64,000 nucleotides of DNA, taken from assembly GCA_963702545.1 (NCBI GenBank), contig CAVPDB010000013.1, positions 90,118-154,117 on the forward strand. The letters run 5' to 3'. The position numbers and the translations under genes are program-made. Source of the stretch: an uncultured Acidobacteriota bacterium. GTDB lineage: Bacteria > Acidobacteriota > Polarisedimenticolia > J045. The notes under the pieces are model-generated. The model was not told the origin of the DNA. It was given only the letters and a program-made list of their open reading frames with translations, and did no database searches. Below, in pieces: positions 24,800-56,095 of the stretch (its first letter is position 1; every line of letters begins with the position of its first letter).

Positions 24800-24833
24800 A
24801 AAAAGAAGGGGGCCGGCCCGCAGGCCGGCCCCC
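24800..24833 (-). terminator. canonical rho-independent terminator of hppA
   Basis: On the minus strand, 22 nt after the hppA stop: GGGGGCCGGCC, loop UGCG, GGCCGGCCCCC (11-bp perfect stem), followed directly by UUCUUUUU. Confidence 0.8.
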
Positions 24834-24855
24834 GGTGGCCCCGCGTGCGGCCGCG

Positions 24856-27354
<2,499 letters not shown>

Positions 27355-27404
27355 CCTCTCCTGGCGGGAAGGCGAACACTGCGGGTTTCTGCGAGGGACG
27401 TCGC

Positions 27405-27433
27405 CTTATAGCAAAGGGCGGGGGCGGTGTCGA
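27405..27433 (-). promoter_or_regulatory. sigma70-like promoter for hppA
   Basis: On the minus strand: TCGACA (27433-27428), 17 nt spacer, TATAAG (27410-27405). This predicts a leader of roughly 45 nt containing AGGAGAGG before the ATG at 27354. Confidence 0.5.
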
Positions 27434-33814: not shown

Positions 33815-35001
33815 GCGGGCGCAGCGACGCGGCTCAGGAGAGCCGCGGACGCCAGTCCCAGCCCGAGCATCGCCGGCCACAGCACGCCGCCGCCGTAGTG
33901 GTCGAGCAGGAAGGTCCCGATCGGCGGGGCGAGGACCAGCGCGAAGCCGAAAGTCATCGTGAACAGGCCCATGTACTCGCCCGATCGGTGCTCCGGGGCG
34001 ATGTCGCCGACGTAGGCGGCCATCGCGGGCAGCAGGACCATCTCGCCGAAAGTCCAGACCACGACCGTGACCGCGATCCCGACCCGGCCGTGCGTCAGCG
34101 CCATTCCGCCGAAGCCAAGGGCGACGAGGGCCGCGCCGAGCGCGAGCTGCCGGCCGGCCCGCCAGCCCGCCATCGCGACGTTCAGCGGCACCTCGAGCAC
34201 GACGATGATCAGGGTGTTGAGCGTGAACAGCGCCCCGTAGAAGGCGGCCGTGTAGCCGAGGTCGCGGACCAGGAAGAGCGGCAGGGCGGCCGTGAGCTGG
34301 AAGAAGACGACCAGCGCCGGGAGTGAGGCGAGGAGGAAGTAGAGCAGCCGGCGGTCGCGCCACGCCTCGCCGAGCAGCGGGGAGCGAGACGCGCCGTCGG
34401 CGGCCGGTGCCGCGGCGCCCGCCTCGCTCCTCGCGGCGCCTACGGGAACCCACGCCAGCAGCGCCGCGGCGGCCAGCGACGAGGCGCCATCGACCCAGAA
34501 CAGCGCCTTGTACGACCAGGCCGCGAGGAACCCCCCCAGCGCCGGCCCGACGCTCATCCCGAGGTTGATCGCCAGGCGGTTCAGCGCGAAGGCGGCCTTG
34601 CGCTGTTCCGGCCCGGCCGCGAGCGAGACCGCCGAGAGGCTCGCGGGCCGGTAGGCCTCCGAGACCGCCGCGAACAGCACCGTCGCGGCGATCACCGGGG
34701 CCACGCCGCGCACGAACGGGTAGAGCGCCAGCACCGCGGCCGAGAGCACCAGCGAGCTGCCCATCACGCGCGTCGCGCCGAAGCGGTCCGCGAGCCGGCC
34801 CGAGATCGGGGCGGCGACGATCGAGGCCGCGCCGAAGACGCCGACGATCGCGCCCGCCAACGCGCTCGAGAACCCGAGCGGCCCGGTCAGGTAGAGCACC
34901 AGGAACGGGATGACCATCGTCCCCACGCGGTTGACGAAGGTCGTCGCCGCCAGCGCCCAGACCTCGCGCGGCAGATCGGCGACGCCGCGCCAGGGGTTCA
35001 T
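33802..35001 (-). CDS. MFS transporter
   Basis: 399 aa from the ATG at 35001, which overlaps the ggt stop (ATGA). Twelve predicted helices and MFS motif A-like GRLADRFGATRV. Confidence 0.85.
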   Translation of the reverse strand: MNPWRGVADLPREVWALAATTFVNRVGTMVIPFLVLYLTGPLGFSSALAGAIVGVFGAASIVAAPISGRLADRFGATRVMGSSLVLSAAVLALYPFVRGVAPVIAATVLFAAVSEAYRPASLSAVSLAAGPEQRKAAFALNRLAINLGMSVGPALGGFLAAWSYKALFWVDGASSLAAAALLAWVPVGAARSEAGAAAPAADGASRSPLLGEAWRDRRLLYFLLASLPALVVFFQLTAALPLFLVRDLGYTAAFYGALFTLNTLIIVVLEVPLNVAMAGWRAGRQLALGAALVALGFGGMALTHGRVGIAVTVVVWTFGEMVLLPAMAAYVGDIAPEHRSGEYMGLFTMTFGFALVLAPPIGTFLLDHYGGGVLWPAMLGLGLASAALLSRVAAPAHSR

Positions 35002-36716
35002 CAGTAGCCGATCGCCGCGCCGTCCTTGCGCGACTCCGACGCGCCCGCCCGCACGCCGGTGGCAGGGTCGATGCAGACCGCCTGGTAGCCGCCGAACTGC
35101 CCGGGGAGCGCGGTCAGCTGGTGCCCGCGCCGCGCCAGCTCGCGCAGCACCTCGGGCGGGACGCCGGACTCCAGGGCGAGCCGGCCGCCGTCGGTCATCG
35201 GCGTGCCGGTCGGCTCCTGCGAGCCGTCGTGCACGAAGCGCGGCGCGTCGCCGGCCTCCTGCAGGTTCATCCCGAAGTCGACCAGGTTGACGACGATCTG
35301 CGCGTGCCCCTGCGGCTGGGTCGCGCCCCCCATCACGCCGAAGGCGCACCAGGGCTTGCCGTCGCGCGTCAGGAAGGCCGGGATGATCGTGTGGAACGGC
35401 CGCTTGCCGGGCTCCAGCCGGTTGGGGTGCCGCGGGTCGAGCGAGAACTGGGCGCCGCGGCTGTGCAGCCCGAAGCCCAGCTCGGGGATCGCGTAGCCGG
35501 AGCCGAAGCCGGTGTAGTTGCTCTGGATCAGCGAGACCATGTTGCCGTCGGCGTCGGCCACGGCCAGGTAGGTCGTGTCGCCGCGCTGGAGTTCCTTCGG
35601 GTCTCCCGGCGGCACCGTGCGCGCCGCGCGGGCCATGTCGATCGACTTCGCACGCGCCGCGGCGTAACCCTTGTCGAGCAGCCCGGCGACCGGGACCGAC
35701 TCGAACGCCGGGTCGGCGTAGAAGCGCGCGCGGTCGGCGAAGGCCAGCTTCTTGGCCTCGGCCAGCACGTGCCAGAAGTCGGCCGAGTCGCGCCCCATCC
35801 CCCTGAGGTCGAAGTTCTCGAGGATGTTCAGCATCTGCAGCGCCGCGAGGCCCTGCCCGTTGGGGGGCAGCTCGTGGAGCGTGACGCCGCGATAGGTCGT
35901 GGCGATCGGCTCGACCCACGGCGCGCGGTAGGTCTTGAAGTCGTCGAGCGCGAAGAATCCGCCGTTGGCGGCGGAGTAGCGCACGATCGCCTGCGCGATC
36001 GACCCCTCGCGGATCGCGGGAGGGCCCTCCTTCGCGAGGGTCTCGAACGTCCGGGCGAGCGCCGGGTTCGCAAAGAGCTGGCCTTCCCGCGGCGCTCTGC
36101 CGTCCGGAAGGAAGACCGCCGCGAAGCCCGGCTTGTCCTTGAACGCGCGCCCCCCACGCTCCCAGGCCGCGGCGATCGCCTGCGGCACCGGGGCCCCCTC
36201 GCGCGCCAGCCGGATCGCCGGGGCGAGGACCTCGGCCAGCGGCAGCCGGCCGAGCTTCGCGTGCAGCTCGAACCAGCCTTCCATCGCCCCGGGCACGGTC
36301 CAGGCGTAGGGGCTGTAGAGCGGGATCGTCCCGTCCTTCTCGGGCGGGACCTTCTCGCGCGTCAGCGCGCGCGGCGCCGGCCCCGAGGCGTTGAGGCCGA
36401 GCAGCTTCCCCTGTTTCGCGTCCCAGGCGATCGCGAACAGGTCGCCGCCCGGGCCGCACGCCACCGGCTCCAGCACGGCGAGCGCGGCATTGACGGCGAT
36501 CGCCGCGTCGGCCGCGCTGCCGCCCCGCTTCAGGATCTCGATCCCGGCCTGCGAGGCGAGCGGGTGCGCCGACGCGACCATCCCGTGCTTCGCGTAGACG
36601 ACCGAGCGGGTTGCGAACAGCTTCCCCTCGGTCCGGTCCGCGGCGCGTGCCGCCGCCGCGCCCGCGAGGGCGGCGACGACGAGCGCCAGGAACCACGCGG
36701 CGGTCGTGCGGCGCAC
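35001..36716 (-). CDS. ggt: gamma-glutamyltransferase
   Basis: 571 aa with a signal peptide. Autoprocessing/catalytic Thr context GDTTYLAVADADGNMV. C-terminal GGATQPQGHAQIVVNLVDFGMNLQEA. Confidence 0.95.
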   Translation of the reverse strand: MRRTTAAWFLALVVAALAGAAAARAADRTEGKLFATRSVVYAKHGMVASAHPLASQAGIEILKRGGSAADAAIAVNAALAVLEPVACGPGGDLFAIAWDAKQGKLLGLNASGPAPRALTREKVPPEKDGTIPLYSPYAWTVPGAMEGWFELHAKLGRLPLAEVLAPAIRLAREGAPVPQAIAAAWERGGRAFKDKPGFAAVFLPDGRAPREGQLFANPALARTFETLAKEGPPAIREGSIAQAIVRYSAANGGFFALDDFKTYRAPWVEPIATTYRGVTLHELPPNGQGLAALQMLNILENFDLRGMGRDSADFWHVLAEAKKLAFADRARFYADPAFESVPVAGLLDKGYAAARAKSIDMARAARTVPPGDPKELQRGDTTYLAVADADGNMVSLIQSNYTGFGSGYAIPELGFGLHSRGAQFSLDPRHPNRLEPGKRPFHTIIPAFLTRDGKPWCAFGVMGGATQPQGHAQIVVNLVDFGMNLQEAGDAPRFVHDGSQEPTGTPMTDGGRLALESGVPPEVLRELARRGHQLTALPGQFGGYQAVCIDPATGVRAGASESRKDGAAIGY

Positions 36717-36726
36717 GGCCGGCCGC

Positions 36727-39700
36727 CTACCGCGCGCGCTTCAGCGCCGGCGGCGCCAGGTCGGGCGGAACCGGGACTCTTCGGCGCGACCCGCGGGTTC
36801 TTCGCCAGCTCGAGCATCAGCACCTCGACCGCCTTCTCCACCGACGGGTCGCCCCCCTGCGTCATCACCTCGGGCAGGTCGATCACCTCGATGTCCGGCT
36901 CGACCCCTTCGTTCTCGATGACCCACTGGCCGGCCGCGTCGTAGATCCGGAAGGTCGGGACCTGGACCGCGCCGCCGTCGGCCAGCGCCGGGTTGCCCGA
37001 CAGCCCGATCAGTCCGCCCCAGGTCCGCGTGCCGATCAGCGGCCCGAGGCCCCGCGCCTTGAACCAGTAGGGAAGGGCGTCGCCGCCCGAGGACGAGTAG
37101 CCGTTCATCAGCATCGCCTTCGGGCCGTCGTGCGCGAAGCCGGGCGAGCGCATCGCCTCGACGTTGCGCCGGGCCCACCAGGCCATCGTGTTGCGCTCGA
37201 GGTAGTCGATCATCCGGACCGGGATGAAGCCGCCGCCGTTGTAGCGGTCGTCGATGATCAGCGCGGGCTTGGTGACCTGCGCGTAAAACAACTTCTGCAG
37301 CATCCGGTTCCCCTCGCCCGCGGTGTTGGGGAGGTGGATGTAGCCGACCTTGCCGCCCGAGAGCTTGTCGGCCAGCGCCATCCGGGTCCGGACCCAGTCG
37401 AGGTAGCGCAGGTTCAACTCGCTGTCGATCGTGCGCACGGTGACCTGGCGCGCCCCCTCCGCGGCCGGCTTGCCGTTCACGCTCAGCACGACCTGCCGGT
37501 TCGCCTTCCCCTCGAGCAGGCGGTAGGGGTTGTCGGCGGTCGTCAGGTCGACGCCGTCGATCGCGACCAGGAACTCGCCCTCCTTGATGTTCACGCCGGG
37601 CTCGGAGAGCGGGCCGCGCCAAGCCTCGTCCCAGTTCTCGCCGGCGTAGATCTTGTCGATCCGGTAGCGGCCCGAAGGGTCGGCGAGCAGCTCGGCCCCG
37701 AGCATCCCGCCCTCGACCCTCTCCACCGTCGGCTCGTCGCCGGGGGCGACGTAGGTGTGGCCGGCCTCGAGCTCGCTCATCATCTCGCCCAGCAGCCAGT
37801 CGACCTCGGCCCGGTGCGCGACGAACGGGACCAGCGCGTCGTAGCGCTCGTAGAGCGCCTTCCAGTCGTAGCCGTGCATCGCCGGGTCGTAGAACCAGTC
37901 GCGGGTGATGCGCCAGCCGTCGGTGAACATCTGCTGCCACTCGGCCCGCGGGTCGAGCTTCATGCGCAGGCCGGAAAGGTCGAGTTTCCCCTCGCTGCCG
38001 GAGAGGCTGGCCTTGGCGTCGGTCAGGCCCCAGTTCGGACCCTGGCGGTAGAGCAGCTTCTTGCCGTCGGCCGTCAGCAGGTAGCCGCCGGGGTTGTCGA
38101 GGACCTTCTCTTCCTTGCGCTCCTTGAGGTCGAAACGGTAGAGCGCCCGCGAGCCGCCGTCGGCGTTGCGGACGTAGTAGACGAAGCCAGGGACGGCGGC
38201 CAGGTTGCCGTACTCGCCGGCGGGGAGGCCGGGGAGGGCGATGGTGCGGGCGGCGAAGCCCTCGGGGACGATCGTCGTGGTGGGGGGAGCCTTGTCGGCG
38301 TCCTTCTTGGCGTCGTCGTCCTTCTTCGGGCCGGCACGGAGGCCGGCCCCTACGGGGTCATCCTTCTTCGGGCCGGCACTGAGGCCGGCCCCTGCGGCTT
38401 CGCCTTTCTCCTCGTCCGACTTGAGCGGGAAGAGCGGGTCGGCGGCCGGGTCGAGCGCGGCGGCGTAGACGCGCCCCGCATTGCGGTAGAGGTAGTCGAA
38501 CTCGAAGGCGCTCGTGACGAAGTTGAAGTCGCGCAGGCTGGTGAAGAACAGGTACTTGCCGTCGGCCGAGAAGACCGGGTCGCCGTCCATCGTCGCCCCG
38601 TCGCCCAGGAAGAAGCTCTTCCCCTGCTCGACCGACCAGACCGCGATCCCGGGCATCCGGTTCGGGTGGCTCTTCTCGTAGGCCAGCCAGCGCGAGTCGG
38701 GGGACCAGCCGTAGCTGACCAGGTCCTCCTGGTCGCTCCGGTCGGCGACCGTCACCTCGCCGCTGGCGACGTCGACGACCAGCAGCCGCTGCTGGCGGTC
38801 CGCGAACGCCAGCTTCTTTCCGTCCGGGCTGAAGGCGGGAGCGTAGTACCAGCTGACGGCGTCCTTCGTCAGCTGCCGGGGCGTGCCGCTGCCGTCCTGG
38901 TTGCCGAGGTAGATCTCGTACTCGCCCGTCCGGTCGGACAGGTACGCGATCGTCTTCCCGTCCGGCGACCAGGCCGGCGCGCGCTCGCGCACCCCCTGGC
39001 TGGGAAAGAGGGCCCGCGTCGCGCCGTCTTTGGCCGGGACCGAGAACAGGTCGCCGCGGGCGTCGAACGCGACGCGCGCGCCGGACGGCGAGAGGGCCGC
39101 GCCGCCGACGTTCGCGGCGACCGCCTTGAAGGCCGGCAGCGCGTAGGGCTGCTCGGCGCCGAGTGCGATCGGGATCTTCGCCGCCTGGCCGCTGGCCAGG
39201 TCGTAGCGGTAGAGGAACCCGCCGTTCATGAAGACGATCGCGCCCGGCCCGGCCGCCGGCCAGAGGACGTCGAACTCGGTGAACTGCGTCAGCTTGCGCG
39301 TCGCCTTCGTCTTCAGGTCGCAGGCGAACAGGTTGAGCGTGTCGTCGCGGTCCGAGGTGAAGTAGATCGTGTCGCCGATCCAGATCGGGAAGTTGTCGGT
39401 GACGCGGCTGTCGGTCACGCGCTCGGACCGCGCGGCCACCAGGTCGTAGATCCAGATGTCCTGGGCCCGGCCGCCGCGGGTCCGCTTCCAGGTTCGGAAC
39501 TCGCGGTCGATCGGCGTGTAGGCCAGCTTCGTGCCGGACGGGTCGAACGAGGCGCTGCCGCCGTGGGGCAGGGGGAGCGGCCGCTCGAGGCCCCCCTTGG
39601 GGTCGACCAGGAAATAGGTCCCCATCCGCTCGCCGAAGGCGGTCCGGTTCATCCGCACCAGGATCCGCCCGTCCTTCGTCCAGTCCATCACCCAGTTGTC

Positions 39701-40117
39701 GAAGCCGCCGCGCGGCGGCATCGCGCCGACGTCGGTGTAGTAGGTCAACTGCCGCGGCTCGCCTCCGGCCAGCGGCATCACGTAGACCTGGCGCGAGCCG
39801 GTGTACTCGGCCGTGTAGGCGATCCACAGCCCATCCTGCGAGATCTTCGGGAACAGCTCCTGGCCGGGGTGAGCCGTCAGCCGCATCGCCGGGCCGCCCG
39901 CCGATGGAGCGCGCCAGATGTCGCCGCCGTGGACGAAGACGACCGTGTCGCCGTGGATGTCGGGGAAACGCAGGAGGCGCCCTTCGGGTGCCGCGGGACC
40001 GGGCTCGGCGGCGCGGGCCGGCCCGGCGACCAGCGCCAGCAGCACGAGCAGCGCCAGCAGGCAGGCGAAGCAGAGCGGGGTGGGGGTGGCCGGGACGAGC
40101 GAACGGAGCGTGCGCAC
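36727..40117 (-). CDS. tricorn-type protease homologue (beta-propellers + PDZ + S41 peptidase); C-terminus probably frame-shifted
   Basis: The GTG at 40117 lies 6 nt after GGAGG; the ORF track starts at a TTG at 40156. Signal peptide present. PD40/TolB-like propeller repeats. S41 core YNGGGF and MLMNGYSSSGGDALPYWF..GTRTWGGLIG. As written, the frame runs on to 36530 as Arg/Ser/Pro junk overlapping ggt by 187 bp. A shift at about 36778 gives ...NPRVAPK/VPVPPDLAPPALKRAR and a TAG at 36727-36729, 11 bp from the ggt start. Confidence 0.8.
38328..38395. repeat. two REP-like hairpin elements inside the tricorn-type protease CDS
   Basis: GGGCCGGCACGGAGGCCGGCCCCTAC (38328-38353) and GGGCCGGCACTGAGGCCGGCCCCTGC (38370-38395). 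These are the same element as the intergenic copies at 55968, 56014, 63260, 63307 and 63362. Confidence 0.85.
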
Positions 40118-40208
40118 GGAGGACCTCCGGAGGGCGTTGAGGCGCCAGATTGCCAAAACGGGAGCGGCAAGACAAACGATAGCGGCCGCGGGGTATCCTT
40201 AGGTCCTC

Positions 40209-41357: not shown

Positions 41358-41389
41358 GCGGTAGCGCGGGCCGCCACGGAGGGCGGCCG

Positions 41390-42925
41390 CTACGGCGTCA
41401 CGGTCTCGCGGTCGTAGGCGCCGTCCGAGACCGAGCGCGCCGTGCGGAAGGCCAGCCGCGCGATCTTCTCGAGCAGCGCCGGGTTCAGCGTTTCCGGCCG
41501 GTCGCTGGCCTGGTGCAGGTGCGTGTAGCTCTTCGTCGACGCGAAGTAGAGCGTCGGGATCCCCTTCTCGTGGAACGGTGTCGCGTCGGCGCCGCCACCG
41601 GCCCAGGTGTCCGCGATCGTGATCCGCTCCCCGCCGGCGTCGAGCGTGCGGGCCAGCTCCCAGAGGTGCGGCGCGCTCTTGCCGCCGCCCAGTTGCAGCC
41701 CGTCGCCGTGCCCGACGCAGTCGATGTTGAGCATCGCCACGACCTGGTCCGGCGGGTAGGGCATCCGCTCGGCGAACCAGCGCGAGCCGTTCAGCCCCTG
41801 CTCCTCCGCGGCGAACAGCACGAAGACCAGCGTCTGTCGGGGCGGGCGGTGGCTCTTCGCGAAGGCCTCGGCGACCGCGAGCAGCGCGGCCGTGCCGGAG
41901 GCGTTGTCGTTGGCCCCCGGCCAGAGCACCCCTTCCTGCGTTCCGACGTGGTCGAGGTGCGCCCCCAGCACGACGACCCGGCCACGCAGCTCCGGGTCGC
42001 CGCCGGGCAGGACCGCAACCACGTTGGCCGCGGGCTGGTCGGGGCGGTACTTCGCCACGACCGTCATCGCGGCCTTCGAGCCGAGCGGGCGCGAGCGCGG
42101 CGCCTTCGCCTCGGCGAGTTCCTTCGCGAGCGACTCGAGCGTGGCCCCGCTCCCGGCCAGCAGTTGCGCCGCCACCGCCCCGCTGACGTGCTGCTGCGGG
42201 AAGCTGGCCGGCTGCTCGCCGGGCCCGTGCATCACGCTGGCGATCGGCGGCCCGATCTTGCCGTCCTTCGGCAGCGAGACCATCAGCAGCCCCACCGCGC
42301 CGCGGGCCTGCGCCGCGAGCGCCTTCGGCCGCGGCAGGGTCGCGTCGCCCCAGCCCTTGACCCCCTCCGCGGCGCGCGGCGGGTCGAACGGCGGCGCGTC
42401 CTTGAAGACCAGCACGATCTTGCCGGCGACGTCCAGGCCGGCGTAATCGTCCCAGCCGCGGTCGGACAGCGACAGGCCGAACCCCGCGAACACCACGGGG
42501 GCCGAGACGGTGCCCGAGCCGGTGAAGCCGCGGCAGGTGAAGTCCTCCGGGATCGCCAGCGCGCGCGGCGCGCCGCCGGCCGGCGTGATCGACAGCCGGC
42601 AGCTCTCGATCGCGTTGTACTCGAGCGGGAAGACCTGCAGGTAGCCGCCTGCGTCGCCGCCCGGCCGCAGGCCCAGCTTCTCGAACCGCTTGGCGGCCCA
42701 GCGCGCGGCCTCGTCGTAGCCGGGGCTCCCCGCCAGCCGCCCGCCGAACTTGGGCGAGGCCAGGGTCCGCACGTCCTTCATCATGGACTCGGCCTCGATC
42801 CCCGGGACCGCGTCCGGATTCCCCTTCTTCTCGGCGAACGCGGCGGCGGCGGCGAGCCCGATCGCCGCGCCCGCCAGGATCCATGCGCCGGCCCGTGCCC
42901 GGGCCGTTCCGCGATCGCGCCTCAT
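41390..42925 (-). CDS. M28-family aminopeptidase with PA domain, secreted
   Basis: 511 aa from the ATG at 42925, preceded by GGAGGA. Signal peptide present. PA-domain insert (GKIVLVFKD). M28 metal-ligand contexts GAHLDHVG, NDNASGTA, FAAEEQGLNGSRWF and NIDCVGHG. Confidence 0.85.
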   Translation of the reverse strand: MRRDRGTARARAGAWILAGAAIGLAAAAAFAEKKGNPDAVPGIEAESMMKDVRTLASPKFGGRLAGSPGYDEAARWAAKRFEKLGLRPGGDAGGYLQVFPLEYNAIESCRLSITPAGGAPRALAIPEDFTCRGFTGSGTVSAPVVFAGFGLSLSDRGWDDYAGLDVAGKIVLVFKDAPPFDPPRAAEGVKGWGDATLPRPKALAAQARGAVGLLMVSLPKDGKIGPPIASVMHGPGEQPASFPQQHVSGAVAAQLLAGSGATLESLAKELAEAKAPRSRPLGSKAAMTVVAKYRPDQPAANVVAVLPGGDPELRGRVVVLGAHLDHVGTQEGVLWPGANDNASGTAALLAVAEAFAKSHRPPRQTLVFVLFAAEEQGLNGSRWFAERMPYPPDQVVAMLNIDCVGHGDGLQLGGGKSAPHLWELARTLDAGGERITIADTWAGGGADATPFHEKGIPTLYFASTKSYTHLHQASDRPETLNPALLEKIARLAFRTARSVSDGAYDRETVTP

Positions 42926-43028
42926 CCGGTCCTCCGTCCGCGGGCGGCCGTTGACGGCGCGCCGCGGGCGCTGAGATCCTACACGGATGGCGCCCTTCCG
43001 CCCCGGCCCGCCCCCGCCCCGGCCGCCG

Positions 43029-43785
43029 ATGTCCGCGCGGCTGCTGTTCGCGGACGAGCGGCTGGTGGCGCTCGACAAGCCGGCGGGGCTCTCGCTCGCC
43101 ACGCCGGCCCGCGATCCGGGCGCGCGCGGTCCGGCGGCTGGTCGAGGCGCTTCCGGCCGCGGTGCGCCGCGAGGAGGCGCTCGAGCCGGACGCGCTGTAC
43201 CTGGTGCACCGGCTCGACGTCGGCACGACCGGCGTCGTCCTGCTCGCGCGCGACGCCGCGACGCACCGCGCGCTGGCGGTGGCGCTCGGCGGCCGGCGGA
43301 TCGGGAAGCTCTACCTCGCGCTCTGCTGGGGGCACCCGCGGCCGCGCGACGGGCGGTACGACGCGCCGCTCGGCCCCGACCGCGCCGACCGGCGGAAGAT
43401 GCGCGTCGATCCGGCGGGACGGCCCGCCGCGACCCGCTACCGCGTGCTGGCCGCGCCGCCGCACGCGGCGCTGGTCGAGCTGCGGCCGGAGACCGGGCGG
43501 ACGCACCAGATCCGCGTCCACCTCGCCCACGCCGGCCACCCGATCGTGGGAGACGACTTCTACGGGGGGCCGCGCCACCGCGGCCTGCGGGACGCCGCGC
43601 TGCGCGCCGCGCTCGCGCCGGACCACACCTTCCTGCACGCGTGGCGGCTGGAACTGCCGGAGGACCTGGGGCCGGTGATCACGGCACCGCTGCCGGCGGA
43701 CTTTGCGGCGGCGCTCGACCTGCTGGGAGTTCCGCCGCCAGCGCTGCCGCCCGGCGTCAGGCCGGAAGGGCCAACCGCCCGCTGA
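43029..43785 (+). CDS. RluA-family pseudouridine synthase (one frame break)
   Basis: The N-terminus MSARLLFADERLVALDKPAGLSLA is in one frame (an alternative start lies at 42987). The catalytic core LYLVHRLDVGTTGVVLLARD...GRTHQIRVHLAHAGHPIVGD is in the next frame. The junction is in the GCGCGCG stretch near 43125. Confidence 0.8.
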
Positions 43786-55967: not shown

Positions 55968-56035
55968 GTAGGGGCCGGCCTCCGTGCCGGCCCGAAACGC
56001 ACCGGCGCGTTTCGGGCCGGCACGGAGGCCGGCCC
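55968..56035. repeat. REP-like element pair forming a long palindrome between convergent genes
   Basis: Forward copy GTAGGGGCCGGCCTCCGTGCCGGCCC (55968-55993) and inverted copy at 56014-56035, joined by GAAACGC-ACCGGC-GCGTTTC. Bases 55972-56000 pair perfectly with 56007-56035 (29-bp arms, 6-nt centre). Confidence 0.9.
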
Positions 56036-56095
56036 GGTCGGCGAGGCGAACGGCCAGCGCAGCGGACGAATCAGCCGGCCGGCGAGGCGGACGGA

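Follow-up and report, generated by a model that had tools for sequence, protein, structure and literature searches.

A GTAG-type repetitive extragenic palindrome duplicated in frame within the tricorn-type protease gene of an uncultured Acidobacteriota bacterium

The tricorn-type protease gene and its repeat

A stretch of 64,000 nucleotides from an uncultured Acidobacteriota bacterium (assembly GCA_963702545.1, contig CAVPDB010000013.1), referred to as the window, harbors on its minus strand the gene of a tricorn-type protease (36530-40117), and within this gene lies a tandem duplication whose two units each carry a repetitive extragenic palindrome (REP) of the GTAG type. The protein is composed of a signal peptide, two beta-propellers, and C1, PDZ, and S41 domains. 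Pfam matches comprise PD40 repeats, Tricorn_C1, PDZ_Tricorn, and Peptidase_S41, the Thermoplasma tricorn protease (PDB 1k32) matches at E=1.9e-82, and 33 aligned homologues show no variation in the columns of the catalytic Ser and His. As read, the open reading frame (ORF) spans 36530-40156 (minus strand) and is continuous for 1208 codons; comparison with orthologues points to the GTG at 40117 as the probable start codon. Since the G+C content at third codon positions (GC3) amounts to 0.92-0.96 in the same frame on both flanks of the insert, the frame is preserved across it. An earlier inspection of the letters alone, denoted here as the sequence-only reading, had placed the repeat in frame within a gene of this type, which is borne out by the domain matches, the match to 1k32, and the continuous GC3 frame.

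Tandem Repeats Finder reports a repeat with a period of 42 at 38315-38397 (2.0 copies, 92% matches, no indels), and with the register checked by hand the 42-bp, 14-codon duplication extends over 38315-38404 (minus strand). The boundaries chosen in the sequence-only reading (38321-38362 and 38363-38404) give 36 of 42 identical bases, and its description as a tandem duplication of 14 codons stands. Each 42-bp unit consists of one REP and a 16-nt spacer (GAAGAAGGAYGACSMC). The REP itself is a 26-mer that reads GGGCCGGCAC[G/T]GAGGCCGGCCCCT[A/G]C on the plus strand and GTAGGGGCCGGCCTC[C/A]GTGCCGGCCC on the coding (minus) strand, with exact occurrences at 38328-38353 and 38370-38395; in abbreviated form it is GTAGGGGCCGGCC..GCCGGCCC. 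On the minus strand, its anatomy is GTAG-GGGCCGGC-CTCCGT-GCCGGCCC, in which the GTAG head precedes a G+C stem of 8 bp enclosing a 6-nt loop. The hairpin has an energy of -11.2 kcal/mol as DNA (z ~ -2.9) and of -19.4 kcal/mol as RNA.

In both protease copies the GTAG orientation coincides with the coding strand, and the consensus peptide is (A/V)GAGL(S/R)AGP. Copy 1 (GCAGGGGCCGGCCTCAGTGCCGGCCC; 38370-38395, minus strand), in which the head is mutated to GCAG and the loop is of variant A, encodes AGAGLSAGP; copy 2 (GTAGGGGCCGGCCTCCGTGCCGGCCC; 38328-38353, minus strand) shows the canonical sequence and encodes VGAGLRAGP. Translation across the entire element in the minus-strand ORF yields AGAGLSAGPKKDDPVGAGLRAGPKKDD. 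Of the six frames in which the element can be translated, a single one contains a stop codon.

The duplication is hosted by the part of the gene that encodes a hypervariable charged loop of the second propeller, extending from SDEEKG to PEGF (38251-38419, minus strand). In all homologues this position is rich in K, E, D, A, and P and shows no conserved sequence. The length of the loop ranges from 18 to 57 residues among 89 homologues (median 36); with 47 residues, the window protein falls inside this range. AlphaFold2, run on the alignment, gave a model (mean predicted local distance difference test score, pLDDT, of 76) in which residues 567-608 of the trimmed protein have a pLDDT <50 and in which no secondary structure is present between the strands at 548-554 and 625-627. 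Both REP-coded segments, residues 575-583 and 589-597, fall into this second-propeller loop; the insert is predicted to occupy a flexible, disordered segment.

The closest orthologue, locus L001 (GCA_025490975.1), shares 94% identity at the DNA and 91% at the protein level as well as the same neighboring genes. Its loop lacks a REP, and the 26-mer hairpin is found nowhere in the fetched loci L001, L002, and L003, the latter two with 82% identity. Among the 120 best protein homologues, none carries a REP-type peptide, be it with or without the palindrome. The insert is present in locus L067 from the Acidobacteriota metagenome-assembled genome (MAG) MFD02979.bin.1.81, a syntenic orthologous locus with 88% identity that was brought in by the genome scan with the 26-mer described below. 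The tricorn gene of L067 is intact; its coding strand likewise contains a pair of REPs at a distance of 42 bp, and their frame is that of the window copies (VGAGLSAGPKQAEA, found twice). Because this independent MAG has the same arrangement in an intact gene, the feature is not an assembly artifact. Its absence from L001, L002, L003, and the 120 best homologues marks it as specific to a lineage. A metagenome scan with the conserved loop flank, aimed at further close orthologues, gave no matches. With the hairpin of loop variant A, nine metagenome matches were obtained, none of them in tricorn genes and most being ordinary terminators without a GTAG head, and a protein search with the 114-aa loop region returned no matches among only 56 candidates, probably owing to a word-index limit.

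Apart from the insert, the 3' end of the protease gene deserves mention. At ~36770-36780 (minus strand), L001, L067, and L002 are one base shorter than the window (AG-CC vs AGTCCC). The additional base produces a +1 frameshift near 36776 by which the normal TAG is missed and the ORF continues for ~85 codons into the gamma-glutamyltranspeptidase gene (35001-36716). Removal of one base near 36776 restores PKSPVPPDLAPPALKRAR followed by the stop codon, as in the orthologues. Judged by this comparison, the extra base may be an indel introduced by sequencing, or it may truly shift the frame of the final ~20 residues.

The repeat family in the window and in public genomes

REPs are thought to spread as single-stranded hairpins by means of RayT/TnpA-REP tyrosine transposases. 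The element in the protease gene is a REP-type hairpin, as the sequence-only reading had suggested; its hallmarks are the GTAG head, the G+C stem, the large number of copies, and their arrangement in inverted doublets and head-to-tail arrays. Five further copies claimed for the window were all located, with 0-1 mismatches to the 26-mer at 55968, 63260, 63307, and 63362 and with three at 56014, where the CTAC tail is lost. The 26-mer was matched in none of 100 dinucleotide-preserving shuffles of the window, against 7-8 copies per 64 kb in the real sequence.

Between two convergent genes, the copies at 55968-55993 (plus strand) and 56014-56039 (minus strand, GTAG head lost) form the two arms of an inverted doublet resembling a REPIN (a doublet of inverted REPs). 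A second inverted doublet is made up of the intergenic copies at 63260-63285 (plus strand) and 63307-63332 (minus strand, loop variant T), the latter being also part of a 55-bp head-to-tail repeat with the copy at 63362-63387 (minus strand). This last copy reaches into a gene, as its GTAG head gives the TAG stop (63384-63386) of the gene at 63384-63998 (minus strand). The statement that the extra copies are always intergenic holds for the other four and has to be amended for this one. A REP of a sister family (GTAGCGGCCGCCCTCCGTGGCGGCCC; 41368-41393, minus strand), absent from the earlier list, is situated between an aminotransferase gene and an M28 peptidase gene (41390-43102, minus strand), and the TAG stop of the latter (41390-41392) likewise comes from the REP. 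The GTAG head is kept in six of the eight window copies, altered to GCAG in one, and gone in one. The palindrome at 24810 was also considered as a REP and rejected, being an ordinary intrinsic terminator without a GTAG head: the minus strand at 24808-24835 reads GGGGGCCGGCC-TGCG-GGCCGGCCCCC followed by TTCTTTTTC and terminates the gene at 24856-27405 (minus strand), with a stem that resembles the REP stem.

Beyond the window, a scan of a genome collection for the exact 26-mer detected more than 102 stretches among the matches listed, mostly in Acidobacteriota MAGs. The sequence is thus repeated far outside the stretch in which it was noticed, a point on which the first interpretation could have failed. 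At least 22 stretches belong to MFD02979.bin.1.81, at least 23 to MFD00032.bin.3.232, at least 16 to Prado002, at least seven to binchicken_co245_196, and at least five to a Thermoanaerobaculia MAG (SMAG_U14494); two MAGs labeled "delta proteobacterium" account for at least 17, and at least 12 are scattered over other phyla. The copies in the loci of the listed matches together with those of the window amount to 156, and the following counts refer to this survey.

Inverted doublets ~20 nt apart, the pattern of REPINs and of bacterial interspersed mosaic elements (BIMEs), are common among these copies. Head-to-tail arrays occur with periods of 33, 37, 42, 44, 47, 49, 55, 74, and 88 nt, the spacer being copied along with the REP, and the 42-bp unit of the protease gene is the same kind of array as these intergenic ones. 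In 35 of the 156 copies (22%), the REP supplies the TAG stop of an upstream gene with a clear coding GC3 signal. Two of these REP-supplied stops are those of the window and 33 more are found in loci L004-L098; their kind is known from the literature (PMC3733652), and their rate is high here.

About 4% of the surveyed copies lie in frame inside genes. Besides the tricorn loci, three sites are concerned. In the Prado002 MAG (L064, ~6100), a REP lies in the linker leading to the C-terminal tRNA-binding domain of a methionyl-tRNA synthetase (MetRS) and is read as VGAGLRAGP in the same frame as in the protease. In binchicken_co245_196 (L080, ~3156), a REP in the C-terminal region of an RsmI-like protein follows the TP_methylase domain and is read from the opposite strand. 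The third site is the RayT-like gene of L031 discussed below. A further candidate, L036 (5086-5158), is doubtful and was left uncounted: a YceI-like ORF crosses an inverted doublet of REPs without meeting a stop and continues into the following gene. Its stop codon may have been lost or exchanged through the REPIN, or both genes may lie in one frame by coincidence. With such a proportion of in-frame copies, and with the phenomenon already published (PMC3733652; PMC6006769), the arrangement is less uncommon than the sequence-only reading had it.

The RayT-like gene (L031, 857-1387, minus strand) stems from the Chloroflexia MAG MFD02923.bin.1.97 and encodes a Y1_Tnp protein of 176 aa in A+T-rich DNA, with a Pfam score of 28.9 bits against a cutoff of 23. 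The protein has 1569 homologues, many of which are named "REP element-mobilizing transposase RayT". REPs of the sister family are present on the flanks of the gene, and the exact G+C-rich 26-mer stands in frame (GPAQRPAPT) just after the HuH motif. At this same spot, nearly all of the homologues possess hypervariable arrays of translated GTAG palindromes. ORFs lying between inverted REPs in L044, L100, L052, and L023 were inspected as well and are ordinary genes.

Two observations on the wider distribution of the 26-mer are added here. In the two "delta proteobacterium" MAGs, the same 26-mer sits mid-way in a conserved composite repeat of ~130 nt with a second hairpin (GGCCGGCAGGGACGCCGGCC) and with CCACTACCC at both ends, of which 20 copies occur among the fetched loci (L017, L021, L034, L035, L037, L038, L049, L052, L055, L062, L079, L081, L082, L085, L090, L102, and L103). 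The exact 26-mer with its GTAG head is found, moreover, in intergenic A+T-rich DNA of MAGs assigned to distant phyla, namely Berkiella/Berkiellales (L020, L033, L096), Myxococcales (L043, L078), Bacillota (L048), Omnitrophica (L040), Elusimicrobia (L066, L087), and Lawsonibacter (L042). A REP/RayT system may have spread horizontally among these organisms, or the MAG bins may be contaminated.

Probable origin, history, and tolerance of the insert

The arrangement is probably the outcome of a GTAG-type REP that inserted in frame into the tricorn protease gene, was duplicated in tandem, and is tolerated as a passenger. According to this scenario, a REP mobilized by RayT/TnpA-REP would have landed in frame in the coding region of an extended surface loop that is charged and disordered. 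Afterwards, REP and spacer (16 nt) would have been copied once in tandem, as is seen in intergenic REP arrays, with insertion presumably preceding duplication. In a coding region, only a unit divisible by three, such as the one of 42 nt, could have survived. The resulting peptide, rich in Gly, Ala, and Pro, would suit a flexible loop and would allow the protease to tolerate the insert; tolerance is expected because the loop is flexible and because five of the six frames of the element contain no stop codon. Most likely, the insert is a neutral or nearly neutral passenger and not an adaptation, neutrality being what we infer from these features. The term "domesticated" in the sequence-only reading implies a function and is not retained, as the closest orthologue, L001, does without the insert.

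Several observations weigh against this scenario, concerning the transposase, the history of the insert, and the conservation of its stems. No RayT was detected in the window or in the fetched Acidobacteriota loci by regular-expression and tblastn searches of the window and 114 loci; for this reason, mobilization by RayT in the Acidobacteriota lineage is a step that we infer.

The history of the insert is complicated by its distribution. The tree derived from pairwise identities is ((window, L001), L067), the window being nearer to L001 along the whole gene, loop flanks included. Because of this topology, the insert was either gained once and lost from L001 or gained twice, and the sequences are compatible with either course. 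Moreover, its position within the loop differs between the two carriers: the REPs of the window precede PKKD, and those of L067 follow PKKDAAGKQSDA. Two ways of accommodating the tree were tried and rejected. Recombination with an L067-like donor does not fit flanks that are closer to L001 throughout, and a decayed REP in L001 would be visible only as a G-x-G-x-x-A-G likeness that demands too many changes at 6% divergence. The differing positions, the lack of a convincing remnant in L001, the sister of the window, and the near identity of the REP sequences, as expected for fresh copies, are all in line with an independent gain of the REP by the window and by L067, in which case the loop would be a recurrent insertion target. 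This is a possible course of events, and the less probable one, since both genomes share a copy number of two, the 42-nt period, the strand, and the frame, and since loop variant A (CTCAGT) occurs in three of the 156 surveyed copies, all three in tricorn genes. A single origin of the two inserts is probable. The identity of the feature as a REP is unaffected by whether it arose once or twice.

The stems of the hairpins pose a different difficulty. Between the window and L067, the protease gene diverges by 26.4% at four-fold sites (149 of 565), yet the stems show no changes at ~15 such sites (P ~0.01, if the copies are orthologous), and identity drops to ~70-80% in the spacers and in the remainder of the loop. 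A purely neutral model would not predict this conservation unless gene conversion or recent insertion is invoked. One might therefore suppose that selection keeps the hairpins as an RNA or DNA element within the gene, e.g. as a translational pause between the propeller and C-terminal parts, as a stabilizer or a processing site of the mRNA, or as a target to which RayT binds. The perfect stems common to both genomes and the stability of each RNA hairpin would agree with such a role. L001 and all other homologues, however, lack the hairpins, which are hence dispensable, and gene conversion from the many identical genomic copies or a recent, independent insertion explains the conservation equally well; of these accounts, gene conversion or recent insertion is more likely than selection on the hairpin.

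At the RNA level, the sequence-only reading had proposed two strong hairpins in the mRNA. The energy of each (-19.4 kcal/mol) agrees with this, but the local fold is not unusual for its composition: the 141-nt mRNA segment is no better folded than shuffles of the same composition (z = -1.4), and in this context the arms of the two REP copies can also pair with each other. On the mRNA (minus) strand, no U-run follows either hairpin in 3' direction, as an intrinsic terminator would have; the two terminator-like matches are weak and antisense only, with almost as many in shuffles (mean 0.8), and no Rfam family is matched anywhere in the window. Selective maintenance of the hairpins is thus unlikely, and their true co-option, be it for a co-translational pause in a secreted protease or as a protected docking site for RayT, is a shade more doubtful still.

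A palindrome without any mobile element behind it, i.e. locally evolved low-complexity or terminator-like sequence or an assembly artifact, is very improbable, for although the bare hairpin without GTAG does correspond to ordinary terminators in unrelated metagenome contigs and at 24810, the full 26-mer with its GTAG head is identical to more than 150 copies elsewhere, the same arrangement recurs in the independent MAG L067, and the ORF and its GC3 signal run uninterrupted across the insert.

Relation to known systems and significance

The in-frame insertion of REPs, frequently as dimers, has precedents. GTAG-type REPs are mostly extragenic, and some are completely enclosed by the ORFs for known proteins (Di Nocera et al., 2013; BMC Genomics 14:522, PMC3733652). 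In more than half of the cases, such intragenic REPs come as dimers or groups, which contribute 20-30 residues (up to 82 in clusters). Their GTAG ends frequently provide TAG stops, and within flexible linkers or loops their insertion is probably neutral; the supplement of the same study catalogues REP-coded peptides such as VGAGLPA (PMC3733652). The protease insert agrees with this description on every point testable here. It differs in its host, an acidobacterial tricorn-type protease that is not among the matches for "tricorn" in PMC3733652, in that its dimer is a head-to-tail duplication of REP plus spacer, and in that the insert is present in two diverged genomes.

Subclass 2.4 of TnpA-REP (corresponding to RAYT group 4) is associated with canonical long GTAG REPs whose stem has three G-C pairs at its foot, and its REPs also occur in frame within the RayT gene itself, in a peripheral variable region and leaving the gene unbroken (Quentin et al., 2018; PMC6006769). 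The REP of the window fits this description, and the RayT-like gene of L031 and its homologues show the same in-gene REPs. In contrast to subclass 2.4, the host in the window is an unrelated protease of the housekeeping type, with no RayT found near it.

Rickettsia palindromic elements (RPEs) are small palindromic repeats in frame in ORFs whose proteins probably still work (cited in PMC3733652), and the protease insert resembles them as an in-frame palindromic insertion within an ORF. RPE-1 is longer, however, the short Rickettsia repeats are tagged with CGTC instead of GTAG, and they belong to an unrelated, reduced genome. REPIN/BIME doublets and the RayT-driven spread of REPs have been described as well (Nunvar, 2010, PMC2817692; Corneloup, 2021, PMC8266576). 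The doublets 55968/56014 and 63260/63307 of the window are alike in being inverted and ~20 nt apart, whereas the protease copies are direct repeats without an inverted pair and do not make up a REPIN.

In-frame insertion of REPs, described in 2013 and 2018, is accordingly already known, and no new mechanism is opened by the present case. New are the host, an acidobacterial tricorn-type protease, the clearly recognizable tandem duplication, and the fact that two diverged genomes carry the insert. From a phylum that has received little study, the Acidobacteriota, the case offers a clean, well-controlled example of a selfish DNA hairpin by which a working protein has gained residues. For annotation, the odd loop peptide of the protease is explained, and segments derived from REPs (similar to VGAGLRAGP) as well as TAG stops supplied by REPs are to be expected in these high-G+C genomes. 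In evolutionary terms, disordered loops would serve as safe landing sites for such elements and may grow by tandem duplication as intergenic REP arrays do.

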